From a virus, in the UHGV virus genome UHGV-0371537: a DNA stretch of 64,000 nucleotides. One strand, 5' to 3'. This document shows, one piece after another, positions 2,872 through 63,830 of the stretch (position 1 is the stretch's first letter; each line of letters starts with the position of its first letter). The translations under genes and the position numbers were made by a program. The notes beneath the pieces are model-generated. The model saw nothing but the letters and a program-made list of their open reading frames with translations, did no database searches and had not been told where the DNA came from.

Positions 2872-4650
2872 ATGGCCACACAAACAGTTCCCTCACTCGA
2901 TGTCAGAACATACGAGTTCCTTCTTAAGAAGCGAATGAAAGCAGACCCGACCTTCAAAGACTATGATTTTGAAGGTTCCGGCCTCAGTGCCATCATTCGC
3001 CTCTTGGCCTCGGATGCCAATGCCGTCGGGTTCATGCAGAACATGCTGAATGGCGAAAGCCATCTTCACTCTGCCCAACAGCGTTCCAACGTCGGTCTTG
3101 CGGCGGGGTTCCTTTCATACACCCCTGACAACTACAAGGCTGCGTTCCTGTATGCCAACGTAACAGTCACACCGTATGATCCAACAACTGCCCCTGAAAC
3201 GATCGTAATCGATCGACGTGCGATGTTTATTGGTGCAAAGGATGGCAAGTCATACAACTTCACTGTCGAAGCCCCGGCGAGTGCTACTTTGGTGGATGGG
3301 TCTTACAAGTTTGAAAACCTGAAACTGATCCAGGGCAACTGGCTGTACAAGTCATATGATGTCGAAGGAAGTGCGATCTCGTCTTATGTGATCCCTTCTT
3401 CAACTGTAGACATCAATCATATGGTGGTACAGGTGGCGGCTTCGGATACAGCCGATGAGACCAGCACGTACTCTCGTTATGTCAGCCCATTTGACCTGAG
3501 TCAATATGCTCAGCTCTACTTTGTGGAACTTGGCCTGGATGGGATGTACACCTTCGAATTTGGAGATGGGTACATCTGCAAACGTGTGGAAGATGGGAAC
3601 GTCATATATCTACAGTACCTGGAAACGTCTGGCGAAGATGGCAACGACATCACCTCTTTGTCTTCAGCTTCTTCCATCGGTGGATTCAACCTCGTGGATG
3701 TTGAACTGGTGTCCGAGCGTTCTTCCGGTGGTGCGCCACCAGAAAGTATCGAAGACACGAAACGCCTTGCTCCTCTGGCCTACCAGGCCGAGGGCGCGGC
3801 TGTAGCTGAGATGGATTACGCTGTTCTAACAGAACGCTTGTTCTCCAATGTGTCACGCGCCAAAGCATATGGCGGAGATACGCTCTCTCCTCCCGACTCC
3901 GGCTATGTCTACATTGCTGTCATCCCTACTACTGGTGAGTCACTTTCGGACGCGGAGAAGGCAGATATCGTGGCGACGTTAGATAAGTACAACGTTGGCA
4001 CCATCACACCAAAGATCGTCAACGCCGACATCACGTATATCGACGTGACAACAACGGTGTTCTGGGATTCAACATCTACAGCATACAACGAAGAGCAATT
4101 GAAAACCGTTGTTGTAAACGGGGTGCAAAACTGGGGCGCATCTAATCTTGAAGGGTTCGAAGAGTTGTTCGACAAAGAGCAACTGCAAGAAGCCATCACC
4201 AAGATGGATCGTTCTATCGCTTCCAACATCGCTTCGGTGAAATACAAACGTCACTTTAAACCAGATTACGGCGTTCTGGATAGTTTCACTTTCGATTTCG
4301 ACAGATCTATCGCTTCTGGTTCGGTGCGCATCAGTGGGTTTAAACCTCTTCCGGCTGAAGTTGATTTCACGTACTACATACGAGACGTCAATGGTGTGTT
4401 GAATATGTACAAGGTGAGCACCGCCGACACGACGAAAGAATATCTTGTACAGGCTGTGGGTACTGTAGACTATGTGAATGGTGTTGTGGAATTACAGCAG
4501 ATCACAGTTTCGAATTACAACGCCGAAGGAGTAACGATTGTGGTGTCTCCTGATGGACTGAACCAGAACCTACAGGCTGTGCAGAACCAGGTGCTCCGCA
4601 TCGGTGCAGTAACTGTCCTGCCGGAGGTGCGCTATGTCCAAAGATCTTAA
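2872..4650 (+). CDS. gp6: baseplate wedge protein, T4 gp6-like
   Basis: N-terminal DYDFEGSGLSAIIRLLA matches the T4 gp6 DYDFEGS region; track ORF begins at GTG 2857, ATG 2872 has GGAG SD 6 nt upstream; CTAAATA late-promoter motif at 2825. Confidence 0.75.
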   Translation: MATQTVPSLDVRTYEFLLKKRMKADPTFKDYDFEGSGLSAIIRLLASDANAVGFMQNMLNGESHLHSAQQRSNVGLAAGFLSYTPDNYKAAFLYANVTVTPYDPTTAPETIVIDRRAMFIGAKDGKSYNFTVEAPASATLVDGSYKFENLKLIQGNWLYKSYDVEGSAISSYVIPSSTVDINHMVVQVAASDTADETSTYSRYVSPFDLSQYAQLYFVELGLDGMYTFEFGDGYICKRVEDGNVIYLQYLETSGEDGNDITSLSSASSIGGFNLVDVELVSERSSGGAPPESIEDTKRLAPLAYQAEGAAVAEMDYAVLTERLFSNVSRAKAYGGDTLSPPDSGYVYIAVIPTTGESLSDAEKADIVATLDKYNVGTITPKIVNADITYIDVTTTVFWDSTSTAYNEEQLKTVVVNGVQNWGASNLEGFEELFDKEQLQEAITKMDRSIASNIASVKYKRHFKPDYGVLDSFTFDFDRSIASGSVRISGFKPLPAEVDFTYYIRDVNGVLNMYKVSTADTTKEYLVQAVGTVDYVNGVVELQQITVSNYNAEGVTIVVSPDGLNQNLQAVQNQVLRIGAVTVLPEVRYVQRS

Positions 4651-5488
4651 TAACGGCCACAACGGGGTAAAGTATGAGACTCCGTTGTTCTACCAGAACG
4701 AGTTCCCGGCGTTCATTGAGTTCATGGACACTTTCTTCAATTGGTTGTACCGCCAGCAGGGGTTCACTGAAGAAGAGATCTTGTCTTATCTTGCGGAGCC
4801 AGATGCTTGGGTGAACCCGAACACCGAAGATTCACCCCTTGAGCAGCTGATTGATATCAAGAAACGAAAGACTCCGGGAACCGAAGCCAAGGATTTCTTG
4901 GAAGACAAGTTCCTGACCCGCACGTTTGAAAACATGATGGCGCTTGATGCAGAAGAACTCTTGGACGCAGATGGTCGACCGCTCATATCTATGGAAGATA
5001 AGAATGAACGTATCGATGATTGGTATAGCGACTTCGGTTTCCAGAGAACGGTTGACAAGAACTTCCTTGAATTCGGACACTTTGTACCAGTGGGTTCAGA
5101 TTCACTTGTGACATCTGATGGAGACACGTTTTCTGTTTTCGTGGCCGGGGTTCGACGCCGAACCCTGGACCATGTTCGTTGGTTGAAGTTGCTGAAACAT
5201 ATCTACCGTATTCGTGGGACGAAGAAAGCTATCGAACTGTTCTTCTGGATTTACTTTGGATGTCCTGTGTCTGTATACTATCCAAAGGAAGAGATCGGCG
5301 GCCTGGATGATAACTTTGAATGTGATGGCGCAACCGGGATGCGTGATGACTATTACTATGATGAATTCACTTATGTGATAAGAGTTCCTGGCGACGTATC
5401 TGATTTTGAAGGCGTATTTGAACGCGTCTTCCGTCAGCATTTCCATCCTGCTGGGTTTACCGTATTCCTGGAAAGTTCAAGGAGTTAA
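4634..5488 (+). CDS. hypothetical virion/baseplate-associated protein (284 aa)
   Basis: ORF overlapping the gp6-like stop with GGAGGTG SD; position inside the baseplate module. Confidence 0.5.
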   Translation: MSKDLNNGHNGVKYETPLFYQNEFPAFIEFMDTFFNWLYRQQGFTEEEILSYLAEPDAWVNPNTEDSPLEQLIDIKKRKTPGTEAKDFLEDKFLTRTFENMMALDAEELLDADGRPLISMEDKNERIDDWYSDFGFQRTVDKNFLEFGHFVPVGSDSLVTSDGDTFSVFVAGVRRRTLDHVRWLKLLKHIYRIRGTKKAIELFFWIYFGCPVSVYYPKEEIGGLDDNFECDGATGMRDDYYYDEFTYVIRVPGDVSDFEGVFERVFRQHFHPAGFTVFLESSRS

Positions 5489-5490
5489 AA

Positions 5491-6702
5491 ATGGCCGATT
5501 TCCTGAGTCAATATACAGGTCAGCAGATTGATGCAATACTTGGTTCTGTTGACGACAAAGTAAGTAAGAATGATGTTATCAACGATTTCGCCGTTGATGA
5601 CCCGTTGTTTCCTCCGTCAGCTCATTTGACATATGAGCTGAAGCGTTCTGTGGATAATATCTACGACATACTGGAAAACAAAGTGATCCGCACCGACGGT
5701 GGTGAACAAACTATCAACGGGCGGAAGACTTTTGCCGCAGAAATCCGAGCCAATGCTGGTGTCAGTATCCCTACGGGGAAGAAACTTACCATCACAGATG
5801 AGCCAGTTGATTCCACTGATGGCGTCAATCTGTCTATGCTGCGCAAGCACGGCGTGAGTGAAGACACTGCCGGGGTTAACTCTGGTCTGAAAATCGAGTT
5901 GTTACCTGGTGGCTACAACAAACTCACTTTCGATGGCACAAATCTGGCCACTTACTCTGGTACTGGTGTGCCAACTACCATGTTACTGGTGAGTGGAACC
6001 GACACTGTCAAGTACGACACATCTGCGTTTGTGACTTCTATCTTCAATGATACGCGTTTCAACGCTTATCTGAAGGTTGTTGATTATGATGCCGATATGT
6101 TGGATATCCAGTCTCAGTTCAACACTGTCAACACCACTCTGGCTGCGAAGGTCAACACGTCGACTTACAACTCCAAGATGTCTAGCCTGGACACCAGTAT
6201 ACTGGATCTGACGAACAACAAAGTGAACGTCAGTACGTATAACACGAAGATGGCGGCGTTGGACAGTTCCATCAGTGGCATTCAGAGTGATATCGGCACG
6301 ATCAATACCACGTTGTCTGGAAAGGTCAACACATCGACCTACAACGCCAAAATGACAAGCCTGGACGCCGACATTGCTGCCCGTGTGAAGATCGGGAAGA
6401 CCAACCCAAGCGGTATCACTGTCTCTGCTTCTGGGAACTCTGCGTTGCCCGACTTCGATTTGGTGAACCTTTGCCAGGTGTTGATCAGTGCACAATGGGG
6501 TACAGGCAACGTCGTGGATACGTACCGCGTGACGATCACCCGTGACGGGACTATCAAGTCTGAGCTGTTGGTACAGAAGTCCACTTCCGGTACGGTGACA
6601 TTCGCGGGTTCTGTAGTGTCTTCAAAACTTCGTTTGACGATAACAAATGCGAACACGACGACTGCTTGCTCCGTTGACTACAATCTAGTCGCTTCTTTCT
6701 AA
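5491..6702 (+). CDS. fibre-like structural protein with three tandem ~30-aa repeats
   Basis: Repeats of the form NT.NTTL..KVNTSTYN.KM..LD..I between aa ~204-298 (nt ~6100-6390); Ser/Thr/Asn-rich; sits in the tail-fibre module. Confidence 0.6.
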   Translation: MADFLSQYTGQQIDAILGSVDDKVSKNDVINDFAVDDPLFPPSAHLTYELKRSVDNIYDILENKVIRTDGGEQTINGRKTFAAEIRANAGVSIPTGKKLTITDEPVDSTDGVNLSMLRKHGVSEDTAGVNSGLKIELLPGGYNKLTFDGTNLATYSGTGVPTTMLLVSGTDTVKYDTSAFVTSIFNDTRFNAYLKVVDYDADMLDIQSQFNTVNTTLAAKVNTSTYNSKMSSLDTSILDLTNNKVNVSTYNTKMAALDSSISGIQSDIGTINTTLSGKVNTSTYNAKMTSLDADIAARVKIGKTNPSGITVSASGNSALPDFDLVNLCQVLISAQWGTGNVVDTYRVTITRDGTIKSELLVQKSTSGTVTFAGSVVSSKLRLTITNANTTTACSVDYNLVASF

Positions 6703-26783: not shown

Positions 26784-28974
26784 TGTAGAATACGCCCCGC
26801 TCAAGACGGGGTTTAAGACAGAAGACGTCAGACTGCGTATGGACCAAACGTTCATGCGCAAGCCGTCTGTGCGTGCTCCTCGCGTGGAGTTGATGCTAAC
26901 AGATGAGCAGGAATCGGAGTTCGTCGAGTGCGCGATGGATGCCCATTACTTCGCCGCCAACTACTACAAGATCACGACCATCGATAAAGGCTTCATCCTC
27001 TTTGACATGCACGATTACCAGAAGCAGTTGTTCCATGACTTCCAGGACTATCGATTCAATGCGGTCGTCCAGGCTCGTCAGTCTGGGAAATGTGTAAAAG
27101 GTGACACGCTTGTCACAGTTTACGATACTCTCAGCCAAGAAGAGTTCAGCATCACCGTCGAGGAGCTTCACAGCCGCTTCGAGGGACCGAATCATGCTGA
27201 GCCACTGAATGCCTTTGGTAAACACGATAAGTTCGTAGACAGCCGCTTCGGCAAGCGTTATTTTGTTCGCTGTGATAAGGGCTGGGTTCCGGTTATTGCA
27301 GCACACAAGACAAAACAGTATCAGGAATATGTGGTAATCACGACCACAGGTCGACGCATTCACGTCGCTGATGACCACATGTTCTTCAACAGCCACATGA
27401 AGGAAGTATTCGCCAAAGACCTGGAAGCCGGGTCTCTGCTCCAGACTGAAAATGGTTTGGAAGAAGTTGCAGAAGTGTGGCAGACAGGTGAAATGCACCA
27501 TATGTTCGACCTGCAAGTCAAGTCGAGCGATCAACGATATTACACAGGCGGTTTCCTCAGCCACAACACGACCGTCGTGGCAGCGTTCCTGCTCTGGTAT
27601 GCGATGTTCCACTCCGACAAAGAGATCGCAGTACTGGCGAACAAAGAGAAGCAGGCCATTGAAATCCTTGACCGTATCCGCAAGGCTTATCAGGATCTGC
27701 CATTCTTCCTACAACAAGGTTGTGAGAAGTTCGGTTCTACTCTGATCGAGTTCGAAAACGGTTCTAAGATCTATGCATACGCAACATCATCGGACTCCAT
27801 CCGTGGTCGTTCAGTATCACTCCTGTATGTCGACGAAGTAGCGTTCATTGAAAACGACTTTGAGTTCTGGGAGTCTACATTCCCTGCGATTGCATCTGCA
27901 GAGACTTCCCGTTGTATCCTGACCAGTACACCAAAAGGCCAGCGCGGGTTGTTCTACGATATCGTCACCAAGGCGAATCCAGACCACCCACAGTACAACG
28001 ACTTCAAACTCACGGAGGTGCCTTGGTATCGTGTGCCAACATACACCAAGGATCCAAACTGGGAATCCAAACAGAGGGCGAAGCTGGGGGATGCACGTTT
28101 CGATCAGGAATTCGGTATCAAGTTCCGTGGTTCCGTTGGTTCATTGATCCCGGCCAAGTGTCTGGACAAAATGACCTCGAAGCTCTATCTGGAGCCGAAC
28201 GAGTTCACCAAGATCTACCACGAATACGATCCGAAGCGTATCTACATGGGCATCGCAGATACAGGCAAGGGTGTGGAGGGGGATTACTCTGTTCTGACGA
28301 TATTGGACATCACAGACTACCCTCACAAGATTGCGGCCAAGTATCGAAACAACACGATACCGCCAATGATGTATGCATACACTATCGCCGATATGGGCGA
28401 GAAGTATGGCACATGTCCAATGCTGGTAGAAACCAACAACGACGTGGGTGGTCAGGTAATCACAATTCTATATCAGGAAATTGAATACCCAGAAATCATC
28501 TTCACCACAACAGATGCGAAGGGTACTGGTAAACGAATTGGCGGTCGTCGACCTGAACCTGGTATCAACACCAACAAGAAGGTTCGATCAAACGGTTGTG
28601 CTAACCTCAAGGCGCTTATTGAACGTGAAATGTTGGTTATTGATGACCAAGATACAATTGACGAACTCAGTACATTCGTATGGACTGGGACAAGGTATGA
28701 AGCCGATGATGGTTGTCATGACGACTGTGTAATGCCTCTTGTGCTCTATGCATGGGCGGTGAAACAAGAATGGTTTAGTGATCTCACCAACTCCAGCATC
28801 TCGGTTGATATGAGGGGGCGGTTGTCTGCGATGGAAGAATCTCAGATGATGCCTTTCGGCGGGGTTCTTTCAGCTCCCGACCCACACTCTGTCGAGAGCA
28901 TACCGGGCTTTGGTGGAGTCCAGGTTTATGACGAACGTTCCGGTATGACCATGGAAGAATGGCTGAGACGGTGA
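26764..28974 (+). CDS. gp17: terminase large subunit (gp17-like) carrying a mini-intein in the Walker A loop
   Basis: Exteins read VVQARQSGK|TTVVAAFLLWYAMF (Walker A) and resemble T4 gp17 ATPase and nuclease regions; start taken at ATG 26764 (track ATG 26722 also possible). Confidence 0.9.
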   Translation: MAYQKRDVEYAPLKTGFKTEDVRLRMDQTFMRKPSVRAPRVELMLTDEQESEFVECAMDAHYFAANYYKITTIDKGFILFDMHDYQKQLFHDFQDYRFNAVVQARQSGKCVKGDTLVTVYDTLSQEEFSITVEELHSRFEGPNHAEPLNAFGKHDKFVDSRFGKRYFVRCDKGWVPVIAAHKTKQYQEYVVITTTGRRIHVADDHMFFNSHMKEVFAKDLEAGSLLQTENGLEEVAEVWQTGEMHHMFDLQVKSSDQRYYTGGFLSHNTTVVAAFLLWYAMFHSDKEIAVLANKEKQAIEILDRIRKAYQDLPFFLQQGCEKFGSTLIEFENGSKIYAYATSSDSIRGRSVSLLYVDEVAFIENDFEFWESTFPAIASAETSRCILTSTPKGQRGLFYDIVTKANPDHPQYNDFKLTEVPWYRVPTYTKDPNWESKQRAKLGDARFDQEFGIKFRGSVGSLIPAKCLDKMTSKLYLEPNEFTKIYHEYDPKRIYMGIADTGKGVEGDYSVLTILDITDYPHKIAAKYRNNTIPPMMYAYTIADMGEKYGTCPMLVETNNDVGGQVITILYQEIEYPEIIFTTTDAKGTGKRIGGRRPEPGINTNKKVRSNGCANLKALIEREMLVIDDQDTIDELSTFVWTGTRYEADDGCHDDCVMPLVLYAWAVKQEWFSDLTNSSISVDMRGRLSAMEESQMMPFGGVLSAPDPHSVESIPGFGGVQVYDERSGMTMEEWLRR
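27091..27567 (+). mobile_element. mini-intein (159 aa) within the terminase large subunit P-loop
   Basis: Starts Cys (CVKGDTLV), ends HN followed by Thr +1; blocks F/G-like MFDLQVKSSDQRYYTGGFLSHN; splits GK|T of the Walker A; no endonuclease domain. Confidence 0.8.
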
Positions 28975-56826: not shown

Positions 56827-57681
56827 ATGTTTCGTTTGAAATTGAACGACCAAGATGTGTTCTATAAGCACTTCACCTTCCCAGGTGGTGAGGAACATAT
56901 CAAGATCCAAAAGGCTGGAATCCCTATCGGCCACGTCCAGAACGTGGTGATTGATGCTCACATCAAATCCTCTGCTGACTTCGTTGAGCTGGCACTGCTG
57001 GTTAACGCTGTTCGTGGCCTGGGTAACGTGGACCGTCTGACGGCATTCCATGCATATATCCCGTACTTCCCATATGCGCGTCAGGATCGTCATTGTGACT
57101 TTGGTGAGCCTCTGTCCGTGAAGTGGGCGGCTGAGTTCATCAACAGCATGAACTTTGACCGCGTGGCGATCAAAGACCCTCATAGCCATGTCGTGTCTTC
57201 TCTGATCAACAACGTCCATGTGGTCCCGCAAGATTACATCGTGCGTCAATATCTGGGCTGGTTCATTCGCGGCAACAATGCTGTGCTGGTAGCCCCTGAC
57301 GGCGGCGCGGCGAAGAAGACCGAAGCCCTCAGCCTGTCATTGGACGGCGTTCCTGTTGTCTACGGACACAAGAACCGTGACACCAAGACTGGTGAGATCA
57401 TTGGGGTGAGTATTACAAACCCTGAACTGATCAAAGACCGCTATCTGGTTGTGGTTGATGATATCTGCGACGGTGGGCGCACGTTTGTTGAGCTGGGCAA
57501 AGAGCTTCAGAAGCACGAGCCTAAGCACATGACGCTCTTCGTCACCCATGGCATCTTCAGCAAAGGTCTCTCTGTTTTCGACGGGATCTATGATGCTGTG
57601 TATGCCGACACTGTCTGGTGGGAGAACATCACCGCCGACGGTCTTCCTTTCAAAACTGAAAATACAGGACGTGTAAAATGA
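56827..57681 (+). CDS. ribose-phosphate pyrophosphokinase (Prs) family protein; candidate ADPR-pyrophosphate synthetase (Adps-like)
   Basis: YARQDR motif and phosphoribosyl-pyrophosphate binding loop VVVDDICDGGRT; 284 aa; 4-nt overlap with the downstream Nampt-like gene. Confidence 0.8.
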   Translation: MFRLKLNDQDVFYKHFTFPGGEEHIKIQKAGIPIGHVQNVVIDAHIKSSADFVELALLVNAVRGLGNVDRLTAFHAYIPYFPYARQDRHCDFGEPLSVKWAAEFINSMNFDRVAIKDPHSHVVSSLINNVHVVPQDYIVRQYLGWFIRGNNAVLVAPDGGAAKKTEALSLSLDGVPVVYGHKNRDTKTGEIIGVSITNPELIKDRYLVVVDDICDGGRTFVELGKELQKHEPKHMTLFVTHGIFSKGLSVFDGIYDAVYADTVWWENITADGLPFKTENTGRVK

Positions 57682-59342
57682 GCATGCGCCACTTAGATCC
57701 GATCCATGCAATCGACTTCTACAAATCAGGGCACATCTATCAGTTCCCTGAAGGCAGCGAGCTGGTGTTCTCCAACGGAACTCCGCGCTCCAACAAACTG
57801 TTCAACTCTCACCTGCCGAAGAACGGCGTGGTGGTCTGGGGCATCCAGGGCTTCATGACTTGGTTCCATGAACTGTTTGACGAAGCATTCTTCCAGCGCC
57901 CGAAGGCCAAGGTGTTGAAGAAGTATGCCCGTCGCATGAACAAAGTCCTGGGTCCAGGTCGTGTTGGTACAGAGCATATTGAAGCCCTGCATGACCTCGG
58001 CTACCTGCCTATCGAAGTCCGTGCGCTGCCCGAAGGCACCATGTGTCCGTATGGCGTTCCGGTGTATGTGATGTTCAACACCTTGCCGGAGTTCTACTGG
58101 CTGACCAACTATCTGGAGACTGTGTTCAGCTCTGAGATCTGGAAGCCGATGACGAACGCCACCATCGCCCTGCATTACAAGGCACTGATGGTGAAAGCCG
58201 CTATCGCTACAGGTGTGTCGCCGGACCATTGGTTCATCGACTACCAAGGCCACGACTTCTCCTTCCGTGGCATGAGCGGGTGGCATGACGCGGCGTCTTC
58301 CGGTTCCGGCCATTTGGTATTCTTCAAAGGCACCGATACCAACCCTGCCCTGGACTTCGTAGAAGAGTATTATGGCGCAGACATCGACGAAGACTATGTC
58401 GTTGCTGGTTCTGTTGCGGCTACCGAACACGCCGTGATGTGTATGGGCACGAAGGATGGTGAATTCGAAACCTTCCGCCGCCTGGTGCAGGACGTGTATC
58501 CTGATGGCATCGTCAGTATCGTATCTGATGCATGGGATTACTGGCAGGTCATCGACGACTATCTCCCTCGCCTGAAAGACATTATCATGGCGCGTAACGG
58601 TAAAGTCGTGATCCGCCCCGACTCGGGCGACCCAGTACACATCGTTGGCGGCTACCGCATCGAGGGGTTCAAAGACCGCGCCACGCTGAACATCAGCGGC
58701 GTGTCTAGCAGCACCGAAGTCATTCACATCGAAGAGACGAACACCTATCACCTGATCACAGGCGAAGGCACGATCAATTCTCTGATGGCAGACGACCGTA
58801 ATATCATCAGCCGTTCTGAAGCAGTCGGCTCTATCCAGCGCCTGTGGGAGATCTTTGGCGGTACTCAAACTGAGACTGGTCACTTCCTTTTGGATGATCA
58901 CATCGGTCTGATCTACGGCGACTCCATCACCCTGGCACGTGAAGACCAGATCTTTAGCCGTCTGGCTGGCCGGAACTTCGCTTCCATCAACGTGGTGTTC
59001 GGTATCGGTTCCTACACCTACCAGATGAACACCCGTGACAGTACTGGCACGGCAGTGAAAGCCACGGCTGGTAAAGTGAACGGCGAATTCCGTGAGATCT
59101 TCAAAGAGCCGAAGACCGACAAAGGCGGGACTAAAAAGTCTGCACGTGGTTTCCTTAAAGTCATTAAAGACTCTCAGGGTAAACTAGTGTTGGTTGACGG
59201 TATCACCTTTGATCAGGTACAAGACGCCGACAACCAGCACCAACTGGTGTATCGTGATGGTAAGTTCTTCAACACTCAGACTCTGGAAGATGCGCGTGTT
59301 CGTGCTGCTCCTCTGGTGGCGGAACTGGCCTCACAAATCTGA
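57678..59342 (+). CDS. nicotinamide phosphoribosyltransferase (Nampt/NadV) family protein; candidate nicotinamide ADPR transferase (Namat-like)
   Basis: GHDFSFRGMSG and surrounding region resemble Nampt family; 554 aa; coupled to the Prs-like gene. Confidence 0.8.
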   Translation: MSMRHLDPIHAIDFYKSGHIYQFPEGSELVFSNGTPRSNKLFNSHLPKNGVVVWGIQGFMTWFHELFDEAFFQRPKAKVLKKYARRMNKVLGPGRVGTEHIEALHDLGYLPIEVRALPEGTMCPYGVPVYVMFNTLPEFYWLTNYLETVFSSEIWKPMTNATIALHYKALMVKAAIATGVSPDHWFIDYQGHDFSFRGMSGWHDAASSGSGHLVFFKGTDTNPALDFVEEYYGADIDEDYVVAGSVAATEHAVMCMGTKDGEFETFRRLVQDVYPDGIVSIVSDAWDYWQVIDDYLPRLKDIIMARNGKVVIRPDSGDPVHIVGGYRIEGFKDRATLNISGVSSSTEVIHIEETNTYHLITGEGTINSLMADDRNIISRSEAVGSIQRLWEIFGGTQTETGHFLLDDHIGLIYGDSITLAREDQIFSRLAGRNFASINVVFGIGSYTYQMNTRDSTGTAVKATAGKVNGEFREIFKEPKTDKGGTKKSARGFLKVIKDSQGKLVLVDGITFDQVQDADNQHQLVYRDGKFFNTQTLEDARVRAAPLVAELASQI

Positions 59343-59383: not shown

Positions 59384-59554
59384 ATGTCCAAACCATTCAA
59401 AAATGCGGGTGTCGACAACCTCGACCGCCGCTTTAGCCCATCGGAAACGCTGATGAGTCAGATTGAACTCAATCGCGATTTCCTGGAACATATGCTGGTC
59501 AAGCCGGAAGGTGAGGCCGAAGACAACCCTGAAGAAGGCAATAACGATGATTGA
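59384..59554 (+). CDS. small acidic protein (56 aa)
   Basis: ATG 59384 after terminator hairpin; stop overlaps the start of the vWA gene; below ORF-track cutoff. Confidence 0.3.
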   Translation: MSKPFKNAGVDNLDRRFSPSETLMSQIELNRDFLEHMLVKPEGEAEDNPEEGNNDD

Positions 59555-61808
59555 ATCCCTGGAGTTTAAGAATGCGGTTTCGACTGTTGCTCCGTCCAAC
59601 CATGTAATCGTTGTGGACATCTCTTATTCGATGTACCGTGCGCTCCCTGAAGTCCGTAAGCACCTGAAGGAGAACCTGCCTTCCCTGGTGAAACCGGAAG
59701 ACACTGTGAGCCTCCTATACTTCTCATCCCGTGGCGACTTTGGTACTGTGTTCTCTGGTCGCCAGATCAGTGTTGCGTCTGATCTGAGCGAGCTGAACAA
59801 ACTGATTGATCGCTTCCTGCAACCATCCGGCTGTACTGGTTTTGTTGAACCTCTGGGTCTGGCGGTAGATACTGCGCGCAGTCTGAAGAAACCCGGCTAT
59901 GTCAACAACCTGGCATTCATGACCGATGGTTATGACAACTGCTGGCGCTCCAATGAGATCCTGGCCGTTGCCGAAACCTTGCCATTCGTCTTTGATAACA
60001 TCACTTTCATCGAATACGGCTGGTACTGTAACCGCGAACTGCTGGCTCAGATGTCTGAGCGTTCCGGCGCGACTCACGTGTTCGCCGAAGGCCAGACTGA
60101 ATATCAGACTGAGCTGGAAAACGTGTTGAAGTCCTCGGTGCCGAAGGTTCGTGTTGACGTTCCTCTGGTGTACACTCACGCCATTTATGTCGAAAACGGC
60201 GTAGCAACCGTGCTGGCGGTGCAAGCCGAAGCAAGAATGGATTTCCAGATTGGCGATGAGTCCGTAAAACGGAAAGTGATTGAAGTAGGCCACGTGAGCA
60301 TCCCTGAGAGCGTCACGAAGCTGTGGGTTGTCAATCCTAACATGATCGACCAGCTTGATGCGCTGGCGGACATCCAGGCGGCATACGTGCTGGCGTTCTA
60401 CGGCGTACACATCATGGACGCAGACCTGGTGTGGGCTGCACTGAAGAAAACGGGCGACGTTCGCTTCATCAAACAGTACAGCAACTGCTTCACCAAGCAG
60501 GACTACTCCAACATCAAAGTTGATCTGACCCAGGCCATCGTTGATGACCAGCTGCGCGGCGTTGATGGTATCGATTACAATATGGTCCCGGCTGAAGATG
60601 CCACGACCGTGGTTGATGTGCTGACGTACCTGGCCGAAGCTGGCGTGTCTGTTGCCACCAAGCACCCGATGTTCTCCTACAAGAGTATCGGTCGCGGTAC
60701 TGTACAGAAAGCCGACGACACCGAAGACAAACTGGCCGAAGAAATCGCGAACGCCCAGTCCAAAGAAGAGCGCAAAGCCCTGGCTCTCAAGCTGGCCGAG
60801 CACGAAGAGTGGACGCCGTCGTTTGAACCTGCCAATGATCTGGGTGTGGTTCCAATCAGCGACCTGGTCTATAACTCCGAGCGCCCGAACATCAGTGTGC
60901 GGACAGTGCAGCATGGTACTGTTGCAGTTCCTGAGTTCGCGCAGAAGAAGTACGGCCTGCCTGAAGAACTTGACACCTTCCAGTGGCGCAATTACACCAT
61001 CGTCAAAGATGGTATCATCAACGTGAAGACTCTACCGTTTAGACATACCGAATCACCAGTCCGGGGTGCTGAGGTTGTGCAAAAGCTGATCGAGATGGGC
61101 GTTCACGTGTTTGGTGGTCCAGAAGTGTTCATCTTGAACCTGGAAAGCGTACCGCTGGTCAACCGTGCGATGGTCAAGAACATCAGTGCTGCTCAGTTCT
61201 TTGCGGACAATGTCCGCCTGGAAGCCCTGAAAGGCAAGCAGAAGGTGCTGAAGTTCTATCGCGACGCTCTGGTTGGTAAAGGCAATGCCAAAGGTCTGGC
61301 TATTCAGTACGGCGCTGAGGCCGCAGAATACCTGTCTGGTGTTGGCATTCGCGATTACGGCTTCTCGCCGAAGACTGAGACCAAGGAGTCTACCGACTTC
61401 TACATGAGCCGTGAGCTGAACGTTAAGATCGCTGGCGCTTCTTCCCTGCCGAGCATCGCAGCGGTACAGAAGAAGATTGCCGACAAAAAGACTCTCAATG
61501 CGGGTGATATGTTCATCGCCAATGCCCTGAAAGAGTACGATGCATTCGTGAAGTCCCCGGCGATCACTGCCGTGCCTGAAGCCGTACAGAAACAGCTGAT
61601 CGAAAACTGGATCGACGCTGCTGCCAAGGCGGCCATCACTGAAGTCCGCGCTCTGAACAAGACGCTGTCTAAAGTGGTTTATGGTATCGTTGCTGGCCAC
61701 GGCTGGTTCACCGACCTCGACCTGGAAGAGTCCACCATGGAAGTTGAAGTGGATGGCGTGAAGTACAAGGTCACTGCCGAACTGGCAGAGAAAGAGATCA
61801 AAATCTAA
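59547..61808 (+). CDS. von Willebrand factor A (vWA) domain protein (754 aa)
   Basis: MIDAS-like VIVVDISYS (DxSxS) and downstream MTDGYDN near the N-terminus; start taken at ATG 59547 (track start 59463). Confidence 0.6.
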   Translation: MIESLEFKNAVSTVAPSNHVIVVDISYSMYRALPEVRKHLKENLPSLVKPEDTVSLLYFSSRGDFGTVFSGRQISVASDLSELNKLIDRFLQPSGCTGFVEPLGLAVDTARSLKKPGYVNNLAFMTDGYDNCWRSNEILAVAETLPFVFDNITFIEYGWYCNRELLAQMSERSGATHVFAEGQTEYQTELENVLKSSVPKVRVDVPLVYTHAIYVENGVATVLAVQAEARMDFQIGDESVKRKVIEVGHVSIPESVTKLWVVNPNMIDQLDALADIQAAYVLAFYGVHIMDADLVWAALKKTGDVRFIKQYSNCFTKQDYSNIKVDLTQAIVDDQLRGVDGIDYNMVPAEDATTVVDVLTYLAEAGVSVATKHPMFSYKSIGRGTVQKADDTEDKLAEEIANAQSKEERKALALKLAEHEEWTPSFEPANDLGVVPISDLVYNSERPNISVRTVQHGTVAVPEFAQKKYGLPEELDTFQWRNYTIVKDGIINVKTLPFRHTESPVRGAEVVQKLIEMGVHVFGGPEVFILNLESVPLVNRAMVKNISAAQFFADNVRLEALKGKQKVLKFYRDALVGKGNAKGLAIQYGAEAAEYLSGVGIRDYGFSPKTETKESTDFYMSRELNVKIAGASSLPSIAAVQKKIADKKTLNAGDMFIANALKEYDAFVKSPAITAVPEAVQKQLIENWIDAAAKAAITEVRALNKTLSKVVYGIVAGHGWFTDLDLEESTMEVEVDGVKYKVTAELAEKEIKI

Positions 61809-61851
61809 TCCAACAGGCGGGGCAACCCCGCCTTTCTTTGGGAGAAGTAAC

Positions 61852-62175
61852 ATGAGCGGTAAACCAACATATGTTGAGGTAATGCGCCACCTGGCCCGGT
61901 ACGCCACCGATAATCTGAATATGGATCTGTGGCGTGACGATGACAAGCGCAAACTGCTGGATGATGTGGCGGCTCAAAACGAGGATGCCCTGGACAAGCT
62001 GGCTGGCCTCCGCACCAAGAAAGACCTCGGCGGCGACGAACTCGATGCCATAGAAATCGTAATGGATCTCGAAGAAGAGTTTCAGGTCGAAATCGACGAC
62101 GGTTGGCTGGGTAGTAAAGGCGATGACCCGACCATGGGTGAACTCGCTGAACTCGTGGTCGCCCTGCGCAAATAA
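61852..62175 (+). CDS. acyl-carrier-protein-like protein with Glu in place of the phosphopantetheine Ser
   Basis: LGGDELDAIEIVMDLEEEFQVEI parallels ACP [23 protein letters not shown], with DSL replaced by DEL (GAA codon). Confidence 0.5.
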   Translation: MSGKPTYVEVMRHLARYATDNLNMDLWRDDDKRKLLDDVAAQNEDALDKLAGLRTKKDLGGDELDAIEIVMDLEEEFQVEIDDGWLGSKGDDPTMGELAELVVALRK

Positions 62176-62181
62176 CAGAAG

Positions 62182-62210
62182 TCCCCAACAAACGTTGGGG
62201 ATTTTTACTT
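62182..62210 (+). terminator. rho-independent terminator after the ACP-like gene
   Basis: TCCCCAAC-AAAC-GTTGGGGA followed by TTTTTACTTTT. Confidence 0.7.
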
Positions 62211-62297
62211 TTAGGGGTTTACTTCCTCTAAGGAATGTCCTATTATTCAATAACTGGCGAACGATGGGTTCATCAGGTTGAAAGGTAAGATTATATC

Positions 62298-62576: not shown

Positions 62577-62975
62577 TTGACATCAAGAGACTATATCATG
62601 AAAAAGTTAATCCTCGCTGTTGCTATGCTGGGCGCTTCCTTTGCTGCTGTTTCCGCTCCTACTGTCATCACCGGAGTGTCTACCAACGGCGTTTATGCTT
62701 TCAAGGCGTATGGACAAGACCTCGTCCTGTATAAGAACGGGAAGATGATTGAGCGCTGTGTAGCGGACGGTGTAAACCGTGGGATCGACAATCAGGGCAG
62801 TCCGTTCATTCTGGACTTCTATGCCTGCTCCAACGGGACGAAGACCTTTGGTGTCAAGACCTTCGGCAACGTCGCCGACGGCGGTTGGGGGTTTATGGTT
62901 GAAACCCGCAATCGCCGCCCGGTCACGACTATTGAAGAAGAGTTCTTGATCTCTGTCGGGGGTGGTTCGTTATGA
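62577..62975 (+). CDS. putative secreted/periplasmic protein (132 aa)
   Basis: N-terminal signal peptide MKKLILAVAMLGASFAAVSA. Confidence 0.5.
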   Translation: MTSRDYIMKKLILAVAMLGASFAAVSAPTVITGVSTNGVYAFKAYGQDLVLYKNGKMIERCVADGVNRGIDNQGSPFILDFYACSNGTKTFGVKTFGNVADGGWGFMVETRNRRPVTTIEEEFLISVGGGSL

Positions 62976-63259
62976 AAAAGGACGAAGAACTCGCTCTATT
63001 CTCTATGGTGCGCAGTGAAGTCGAAACAGGTTTCAGGGAGACAGACGCGATTATTGACTTAATGAAAGTCAAAAACGATATCGACAATGAACGGTACAAA
63101 ACAGCGCTCTACGGCCTTCTCGAGTTCATTCTGCGCAAGGCCGATCTTGGTCCTGTCGACACCCTTGATGATCTGACCAAGCTGTTGAACACGGGCGGGG
63201 AAACTTTCGACACCGCTCGTATCCTGATTGACGGTGGACCTGAAGAAGACGAGGTGTGA
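62972..63259 (+). CDS. hypothetical protein (95 aa)
   Basis: ORF overlapping the upstream stop by 4 nt. Confidence 0.4.
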   Translation: MKKDEELALFSMVRSEVETGFRETDAIIDLMKVKNDIDNERYKTALYGLLEFILRKADLGPVDTLDDLTKLLNTGGETFDTARILIDGGPEEDEV

Positions 63260-63380
63260 TATGGACTGGGGAATTATTCTTCAATGTGTTGCTACTTTCG
63301 TCTTGGTGTTCCTGATTGTGTTCTGTTTTGGTTTCAGGATGCGCTAACTAAGGGATAATCCATATCCCGAGGTGAATCTC

Positions 63381-63830
63381 ATGTTCATGTCTTCCTTCAT
63401 AGACTGGTTGAACATTATCAACGGCCTGAGGATTCCTGTTGGAAATCTCGGGCTTTCTCGTTCTTCTATGCCACAGATTGACGATGACAAGCAGCAGGCG
63501 TTCCATGACTACCTGGAGGAACTCGGCATCACTATCGATGCTGGCCAGGTTCCTATCAAATCGCTCCGTCTCACCCAGAACGAAATCAACAAGATGAAGG
63601 TCTGGAAGATCATGAAGAACATTCGAAACAAGAAGCCGATGGGTCGGGTTTGGGTGTCTTCTGACAATTATGTGGTCGACGGCTCCCACCGCTATGTTGC
63701 TGCCCTGAACATGGATGATCGCCAGCGCATCAAGGTCTACAAAGTGGACATGCCAGCGATGGAGTTCGTCAAGGTTGCCAAGCAGTTCAAGGGTGTGAAG
63801 TTCAGAACTGTATCTGATGCCCGATACTAA
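63381..63830 (+). CDS. ParB-like nuclease domain protein
   Basis: VVDGSHRYVAALN resembles the ParB/sulfiredoxin DGhHR motif; ATG 63381 with GAGGTG SD (track start GTG 63372). Confidence 0.45.
   Translation: MFMSSFIDWLNIINGLRIPVGNLGLSRSSMPQIDDDKQQAFHDYLEELGITIDAGQVPIKSLRLTQNEINKMKVWKIMKNIRNKKPMGRVWVSSDNYVVDGSHRYVAALNMDDRQRIKVYKVDMPAMEFVKVAKQFKGVKFRTVSDARY

Follow-up and report, generated by a model that had tools for sequence, protein, structure and literature searches.

Acyl carrier protein (ACP) is both an indispensable and a highly connected protein of bacteria. Attachment of 4'-phosphopantetheine by the canonical route requires the hydroxyl group of a serine, and apo-ACP can be converted to holo-ACP by AcpS. 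The 64,000-nucleotide stretch of virus genome UHGV-0371537 analyzed here (the window) carries a gene for an ACP-like protein in which glutamate stands at the place of this serine. As an earlier note on the same DNA had described, it is an open reading frame (ORF) of 107 amino acids with an ATG start at 61852-62175 on the + strand. Throughout the phage family to which it belongs, the phosphopantetheine serine of bacterial AcpP (PF00550, TIGR00517) is replaced by glutamate or aspartate. We tentatively propose that the protein is a non-loadable mimic of ACP, a dead-end ligand that would dock on host enzymes recognizing ACP.

Apo-ACP provides the functional analogy that underlies this proposal. 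Non-modified ACP is a potent inhibitor of E. coli growth according to Keating, Carey and Cronan (1995), as that work is cited in PMC8557913, and apo-ACP inhibits glycerol-3-phosphate acyltransferase more strongly than holo-ACP does (PMC3896788). Like unmodified E. coli ACP, the phage protein has no prosthetic group and keeps the docking surface. Unlike apo-ACP, it can never be converted to the holo form, and it has a negative charge at the attachment site. The ACP fold can also serve protein-protein contacts and not acyl transfer, as in four of the structures that Foldseek matched to the phage model (7w5z_AC, 7w5z_K, 6ynx_q, and 8iuf_EC), and a similar use is proposed for the phage protein. 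These four, in contrast, are subunits of eukaryotic organellar complexes. Small ACP genes with a nearly identical helix II are also found in large phages (phrog_5934; viral contigs L030-L096).

Relative to AcpP, which has about 78 amino acids, the phage protein is longer. Its predicted structure has extra helices between helix I and helix II (residues 24-27, 30-40, and 44-51) and a short helix directly before helix II (residues 55-59). A conserved GW-G-DDPT-GE segment lies where helix III would be.

An ACP homologue without the attachment serine

On the basis of sequence matches and a predicted structure, the protein is a true ACP homologue with the four-helix-bundle fold of carrier proteins. 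The Pfam model PF00550 (PP-binding) matches it with 24.6 bits (gathering cut-off, 20.8; E = 3e-5), and PF14573 stays below its threshold (27.5 bits against 32). The AcpP equivalog model TIGR00517 gives 33.8 bits against a cut-off of 70.45, with residues 54-83 alone aligning; the sole region matched by NCBIfam ACP models is residues 58-84. A phmmer search against all PDB chains returned ACPs only (98 ACP chains at E<=1, the best at 1.4e-5), and these alignments set Glu63 upon the serine of the DSL motif. The segment formed by the loop and helix II is identical to E. coli AcpP in 17 of 27 residues and is the only part strongly similar to cellular ACPs. In an AlphaFold2 model built with 25 homologues, which has a predicted local distance difference test score (pLDDT) of 75, helix II begins at residue 63. 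The top PDB matches of this model in Foldseek are nearly all ACPs, with E-values that are not significant for a domain so small. The earlier note had named structure prediction as a check on its ACP assignment; the predicted fold is ACP-like, and the homology is real by Pfam, phmmer, and the AlphaFold2 model with Foldseek. The peptide that it had quoted (LGGDELDAIEIVMDLEEEFQVEIDD...ELAELVVAL) is correct on reading the window sequence, and so is DEL in place of DSL. Residue 63 is glutamate, encoded by GAA (62038-62040), a codon at least two substitutions away from all serine codons (TCN and AGY).

Comparison by megablast and by tblastn against isolated phages assigned the window to the Ackermannviridae (ViI-like myoviruses). 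Among the matching relatives are phages of Limestonevirus, Agtrevirus, Kuttervirus, and Taipeivirus, and their hosts are Dickeya, Salmonella, Escherichia, Shigella, Klebsiella, Enterobacter, and Serratia. A full-length, intact homologue of the ACP-like protein is present in about 270 phage records from several genera. GenBank mostly labels these homologues 'acyl carrier protein' or 'hypothetical protein', and PHROGs assigns the protein to phrog_4154 'acyl carrier protein'. The label overstates what the gene encodes. Because the attachment serine is what defines a carrier protein, and this protein lacks it, the gene should not be filed under that name. In the open-access full text that was searched, a serine-less phage ACP is not described, and the missing serine has apparently gone unremarked. 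A 2026 preprint only predicts a contact between the ACP of an unspecified phage and host FabZ.

Conservation of the acidic residue

Among 24 aligned homologues, with identity down to 55%, the serine column contains glutamate in 22, aspartate in two, and serine in none. D62, L64, D65, E68, E74, and E76 are invariant in this alignment and E75 is nearly so; 31 columns are invariant in all. The codon at the serine column is GAA, GAG, or GAT across the loci, and the adjacent codons vary synonymously. All six Kuttervirus-type loci in the codon-level set have D-D-L. More distant relatives were obtained by a profile search of 1.84 billion representatives. Full-length relatives of 34-49% identity, one of them from Salmonella phage CRW-SP2, have D-E-L or D-D-L in all cases. 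The most diverged genes, too diverged for a tblastn search of isolated phages at 1e-3, were located through the neighboring gene for a vWA-domain protein. They read FAMDELDYIEF in Erwinia phage Bue1 and LWFDELDRIEL in Serratia phage 3M, both with D-E-L, and LLMDDMDVIEL, with D-D-M, in a 156-kb metagenomic phage. The ORF of Erwinia phage vB_EamM-Bue1 (MG973030; 5253..5612 of locus L024) lies directly 3' of the vWA gene and is uncalled in the gene table of the collection.

Maintenance of the acidic residue dates from before the genera of the family diverged. The earlier view that the glutamate is not a simple sequencing error is borne out by an acidic residue in 24 of 24 homologues and by the synonymous changes in neighboring codons. 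Its statement that the protein cannot be phosphopantetheinylated also stands, as the serine acceptor is replaced and the canonical reaction is impossible. A role in shuttling acyl groups is excluded for the same reason. Modification of the ACP-like protein by AcpS or Sfp is predicted to be negative, the acceptor hydroxyl being absent.

Pairwise ratios of nonsynonymous to synonymous substitution rates (dN/dS) are 0.03-0.2 for the whole ACP-like gene and at most 0.2 in core residues 54-107, which indicates purifying selection. Together with the conserved acidic residue, this selection argues that the gene is functional. Sequencing error and a pseudogene were considered as explanations of the missing serine and ruled out by the family-wide conservation and dN/dS. 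It is barely credible that the gene is the remnant of a captured host acpP that is decaying and no longer has a function. Loss of the defining catalytic residue, the shortness of the gene, and its position behind a terminator-like hairpin might be expected of a relic, but purifying selection is strong, the gene is intact in about 270 phage genomes of several genera with 31 invariant columns, and it has kept its own ribosome-binding site.

Recurrence of acidic replacements in other ACPs

The loss of the serine is more general than the earlier note held, being family-wide and probably convergent. A sample of viral ACPs was drawn from viral contigs chosen by the serine-blind motif MALE[DE]EF. Canonical phage ACPs keep D-S-L at 59 of the 63 loci and presumably can be loaded, whereas the present family and a few scattered lineages have D-E-L or D-D-L. 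The four non-serine loci of the sample are all acidic, with glutamate in L051, L058, and L070 and aspartate in L053. L051 is a canonical AcpP-like protein of 78 amino acids with D-E-L and is 58-60% identical to a serine-containing viral ACP. In a neighbor-joining tree, which is indicative only, being made of short sequences without support values, and in a comparison of nearest neighbors that covered L051, L053, L070, and L083 and not L058, each of these four is nearer to a serine-containing ACP than to another serine-less lineage. L083 came from a pattern that requires 'DE'. These relationships suggest several independent replacements of serine by an acidic residue among viral ACPs. No serine codon is one step from any acidic codon. 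This fact and the uniformly acidic outcome argue, in a sample of four cases, that the carboxylate was selected rather than reached by drift once the function had been lost. The recurrence in unrelated viral ACPs makes the question testable with natural pairs, such as L051 (Glu) and L045 (Ser).

The profile search also gave short, cytoplasmic-looking ACPs with G-D-E-L-D (P0049, P0050, and P0054). P0054 (locus L028) is encoded on a phage-like contig that has HNH and ThyX genes and no vWA gene. A vWA neighbor is absent from the three serine-less loci that were inspected for it (L028, L051, and L058), so selection of the trait does not depend on the vWA gene.

An acidic residue in place of the serine is also seen in exported bacterial ACP-like domains (D-E-L or D-D-L), found in lipoproteins and tandem-domain proteins. 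Nine proteins of the profile search (P0072, P0075, P0077, P0078, P0108, P0111, P0142, P0180, and P0182) are cellular and have N-terminal signal or lipoprotein peptides. Each contains one to three ACP-like (PF00550) domains in which serine is replaced by glutamate, aspartate, or another residue. They seem to be a class of exported ACP-fold domains that are not carriers. Their relationship to the phage protein is distant; they are often in tandem or fused, and the phage protein, unlike them, has no signal peptide.

A possible dead-end ligand of ACP-recognizing enzymes

In the mechanism that we tentatively favor, the retained four-helix fold and acidic recognition helix II of ACP would form a partner-docking surface, and the glutamate (aspartate in relatives) at the cofactor site leaves the protein unable to carry an acyl chain. 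The protein would then bind competitively, as a dead end, to proteins that recognize host AcpP. Candidate targets are the holo-ACP synthase AcpS, the glycerol-3-phosphate acyltransferase PlsB, and enzymes of fatty-acid and lipid A metabolism, and the effect would copy that of the growth-inhibitory apo-ACP. The carboxylate side chain may act as a mimic of the phosphoserine phosphate or as a ligand of an active-site metal. The earlier note, whose interpretation is supported in part, had suggested such a decoy. We infer both the binding to host ACP partners and its benefit to the phage.

The residues used by known partners of ACP are retained. Recognition of ACP by E. coli AcpS needs the ion-pair residues D35, E41, and E47/E48 (bioRxiv 10.1101/2025.01.28.635281), and IscS needs D35 and D38 of ACP (PMC13343975). 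The equivalents of D35, D38, E41, E47, and E48 in the phage protein are D62, D65, E68, E74, and E75, and all of these residues are invariant or nearly invariant. They are kept in divergent members too, with the residue equivalent to E48 changed to aspartate in two.

A bolder extension, which is possible but doubtful, would make the change from serine to a carboxylate in a captured ACP a recurrent and convergent phage invention. Its product would be a permanently 'apo', phosphate-mimicking ACP that jams the ACP-dependent enzymes of the host. If this were true, host membrane-lipid synthesis would be shut down or redirected during infection, and an undescribed takeover mechanism would lie behind a routine 'acyl carrier protein' label in hundreds of phage genomes.

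A mimic aimed at host enzymes would be a simple route by which a phage interferes with bacterial lipid metabolism. It would also be an inhibitor scaffold, natural and genetically encoded, directed at ACP-dependent enzymes such as AcpS, PlsB, and the Fab and Lpx enzymes, which are antibiotic targets. About 270 phage genomes name the gene for a function that is canonically impossible for its product. Use of the Ackermannviridae against Salmonella, E. coli O157, Klebsiella, and Dickeya in biocontrol has been widely proposed, and knowing the function of their conserved host-directed genes therefore has applied value.

Several points weigh against such a host-directed decoy. Aspartate and glutamate are good residues at the N-terminus of a helix, and the acidic residue could be merely favorable there, with a structural role rather than phosphate mimicry. 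Conservation of helix II is also expected for fold stability in any descendant of ACP, and divergent family members share just 10-12 of 27 residues of the helix II region with E. coli AcpP. SpoT does not bind apo-ACP (PMC3896788), and S36T ACP loses IscS binding (PMC13343975). Since several host partners need the prosthetic group, not all partners of ACP can be targets. Nor does a decoy role account for the close and conserved linkage with the vWA gene. Lying behind a terminator-like hairpin, the gene may be expressed at a low level. The sole evidence of expression found is one peptide of the ACP-like protein in the proteome of a Sajous1 virion preparation (PMC10892097), and the literature search found no transcriptome of an Ackermannviridae infection. 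What probability remains beyond the dead-end ligand and the four alternatives weighed in this text belongs to something not considered.

Evolutionary rate and the variable segment

The ACP-like protein has 46-63% identity where the flanking genes have 70-89%, and it thus evolves faster than its neighbors. In a variable middle segment (residues 24-53; 61921..62010), dN/dS is about 1.2 in the comparison with locus L006 and below 0.12 in the flanks. Such a difference points to mosaic exchange or to diversifying selection acting on the inserted helices. Within the segment, the block DLWRDDDKRKLLDDVAAQNED is swapped for EVSDEDKSSIKGIVDAEVVIND in a subset of phages.

Faster evolution than the neighbors and a variable segment whose dN/dS is, in one comparison, close to 1 or higher form a pattern that is common in host-interaction and counter-defense genes. 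The protein is also strongly acidic, with an isoelectric point of 4.3 and 27 acidic against 14 basic residues. It could accordingly be asked whether the ACP fold is just an acidic scaffold, and the protein a generic mimic of DNA or another polyanion that sequesters a basic host protein such as a defense nuclease or a nucleoid protein. We regard this as quite improbable. Conservation falls specifically on the recognition helix of ACP, with the spacing seen in ACPs, and not on acidic surface in general. The PADLOC defense models gave nothing meaningful (one match, E 0.028), and the fold matches are nearly all carrier proteins, with no known DNA mimics among them.

The adjacent vWA gene

The gene upstream of the ACP-like gene encodes a vWA-domain protein. 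Its start, judged by conservation, is the ATG at 59547 (MIESLEF...) rather than the program-listed TTG at 59463. The family has at least 92 homologues and reaches T4-like and other large phages, many members having precomputed VWA Pfam hits. The AlphaFold2 model of the protein has a pLDDT of 90.5. In its N-terminal part, a vWA domain and a beta-sandwich resemble ArnB, ITIH1, and Sec23/24 (Foldseek E about 1e-10). An ACP-related enzyme domain was sought in the protein, and solely the vWA domain and the beta-sandwich were recognized. The C-terminal 350 or so residues have no recognizable domain and contain long helices (residues 549-600 and 653-717).

The metal ion-dependent adhesion site (MIDAS) of the vWA domain is complete. 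VVDIS[G/Y]SM is kept in 18 of the 19 orthologues read, the exception being VDTSGSM in Erwinia phage Bue1; the interrupted gene of locus L014, whose N-terminal, motif-bearing part was not read, is outside this count. Across 50 sequences, D24, S26, and S28 are nearly invariant and T97 and D127 are invariant. In L014, an IMG/VR Ackermannviridae genome, tblastn matches the vWA gene as two overlapping pieces (3700..5953), owing either to a frameshift or to an error of assembly, with an intact ACP-like gene downstream.

The order vWA gene, ACP-like gene, 79-amino-acid gene is found in 19 loci, and the gap between the first two is 39-44 nucleotides in 20 sequences (these loci and the window). The vWA and ACP-like genes keep their order even when identity of the ACP-like protein is down to 46%. 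The two genes are also adjacent in Erwinia phage Bue1 and the 156-kb metagenomic phage, and they are three genes apart in Serratia phage 3M. Every ACP-like gene of the family has a vWA gene beside it or close by. No ACP-like gene was found within 3 kb of the vWA homologue in Yersinia phage JC221, Shewanella phage Thanatos-1, and two large metagenomic phages. It is also absent nearby in an Aeromonas phage with a vWA protein of 62% identity. The pairing is lineage-specific and not obligatory for the vWA protein, because vWA homologues of other phages have no ACP-like gene nearby. The possibility that the ACP-like gene travels with the vWA gene outside the Ackermannviridae was ruled out by the T4-like and other neighborhoods.

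This synteny would be explained if the ACP-like protein were an accessory subunit or ligand of the vWA protein, with the pair acting together, possibly in or on the virion. Metal coordination at the MIDAS would be completed by the carboxylate exposed where helix II begins, or by some other invariant acid, in the way that acidic ligand residues complete it in integrin I-domains. Besides the conserved order and spacing and the renewed adjacency in the diverged phages, several observations fit such a partnership. A scan of the intergenic gap found no sigma70-like promoter, so the ACP-like gene must be co-transcribed by read-through from the vWA gene. The vWA protein combines a complete, conserved MIDAS (DxSxS, T97, and D127) with a confidently predicted vWA fold. 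It is annotated in LIMEstone1 as a confirmed structural (virion) protein, and both proteins were detected, by one peptide each, in the Sajous1 virion preparation (PMC10892097). Nevertheless, we consider the partnership, the main and a serious alternative to the dead-end ligand, rather unlikely. Homologues of the vWA protein in T4-like and other phages (31-46% identity) have the same MIDAS residues and no ACP-like gene within 3 kb, and the case of the Aeromonas phage is similar; the vWA protein therefore does not need the ACP-like gene. A partnership would also leave unexplained the acid-for-serine ACPs in other phages that have no nearby vWA gene. Glutamate or aspartate in the ACP-like protein is uncorrelated with DISGS or DISYS in the vWA protein, and adjacency of phage genes is weak evidence of physical interaction.

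Signals and other neighboring genes

Table 1. Coordinates of the ACP-like gene, its flanking signals, and neighboring genes in the window
Feature	Position	Strand	Basis
Serine-less ACP-like protein, coding sequence, 107 amino acids, stop included	61852..62175	+	
Glu63 codon GAA, site of the phosphopantetheine-bearing serine in ACPs	62038..62040	+	Sequence; PDB alignments; homologues all Glu or Asp
Residues 58-84, loop and recognition helix II (DLGGDELDAIEIVMDLEEEFQVEIDDG)	62023..62103	+	AcpP identity; NCBIfam ACP match
Shine-Dalgarno-like GGGAGAAG, 4 nucleotides 5' of the ATG	61840..61847	+	Sequence
G+C-rich hairpin (61815-61833) and T-tract, terminator-like, between vWA and ACP-like genes	61815..61839	+	Scan
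Terminator-like hairpin TCCCCAAC-AAAC-GTTGGGGA (62182-62201), then TTTTTACTTTT; end of ACP-like cistron	62182..62212	+	
vWA-domain protein gene, 753 amino acids, upstream of ACP-like gene	59547..61808	+	Synteny; VWA Pfam hits; AlphaFold2; Foldseek
D-x-S-x-S (DISYS) MIDAS motif of the vWA protein	59616..59630	+	Conservation
Nicotinamide phosphoribosyltransferase (NAMPT/NadV, PF04095) gene	57678..59342	+	

The ACP-like gene lies between two terminator-like hairpins (Table 1). The annotation of LIMEstone1 has a factor-independent terminator at the site equivalent to the upstream one and a terminator also at the place matching the downstream one. The downstream hairpin was listed by the scan on the opposite strand, and TTTTT follows the hairpin in the sequence.

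The NAMPT gene upstream of the vWA gene is patchy among relatives. Some have it intact, Kuttervirus-type loci lack it, and in LIMEstone1 it is truncated to a C-terminal fragment annotated 'nadV'. A gene resembling phosphoribosyl pyrophosphate (PRPP) synthetase precedes NAMPT in the more distant relatives L019 and L026. The two may form a module for the salvage of nicotinamide adenine dinucleotide (NAD) that is being gained and lost. An obligatory link of the ACP-like gene to NAMPT was ruled out, as many relatives with the ACP-like gene lack NAMPT or have it in truncated form.

The presence of NAMPT and the PRPP-synthetase-like gene just upstream in several relatives, which points to NAD salvage, and the strict conservation of the acidic residue are the grounds for a further alternative, in which the protein is still a carrier. 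A group would be attached in a non-canonical way to the glutamate or aspartate or to another residue, for example as an ester or in a form derived from ADP-ribose. This is very improbable. NAMPT is absent or degraded in many phages with the ACP-like gene, no candidate transferase is conserved alongside it, and the idea is speculation for which no precedent was found. We know of no phosphopantetheinyl transferase (PPTase) with a carboxylate acceptor. The conserved neighborhood of the ACP-like gene contains no PPTase and no enzyme that uses acyl-ACP. The annotation of the related phage CBA120, inspected over 150 of its 157 kb, lists no PPTase, Fab or Lpx enzyme, or acyltransferase, a result that refers to the annotation only, in which many genes are 'hypothetical'.

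Two genes downstream of the ACP-like gene, Kuttervirus has a gene annotated as 'RNA polymerase ADP-ribosylase' (CBA120 orf140; 27347..27853 of locus L098). The counterpart position in the window is occupied by unrelated small genes (62577..63259). Further downstream, a gene at 63372..63830 on the + strand encodes a protein of 152 amino acids with a ParB/Srx-like 'DGSHR' motif and a weak ParB-like match to phrog_1033. This protein matches only an internal part (314-467) of the 740-position profile phrog_2859 and is 83-98% conserved across the family.
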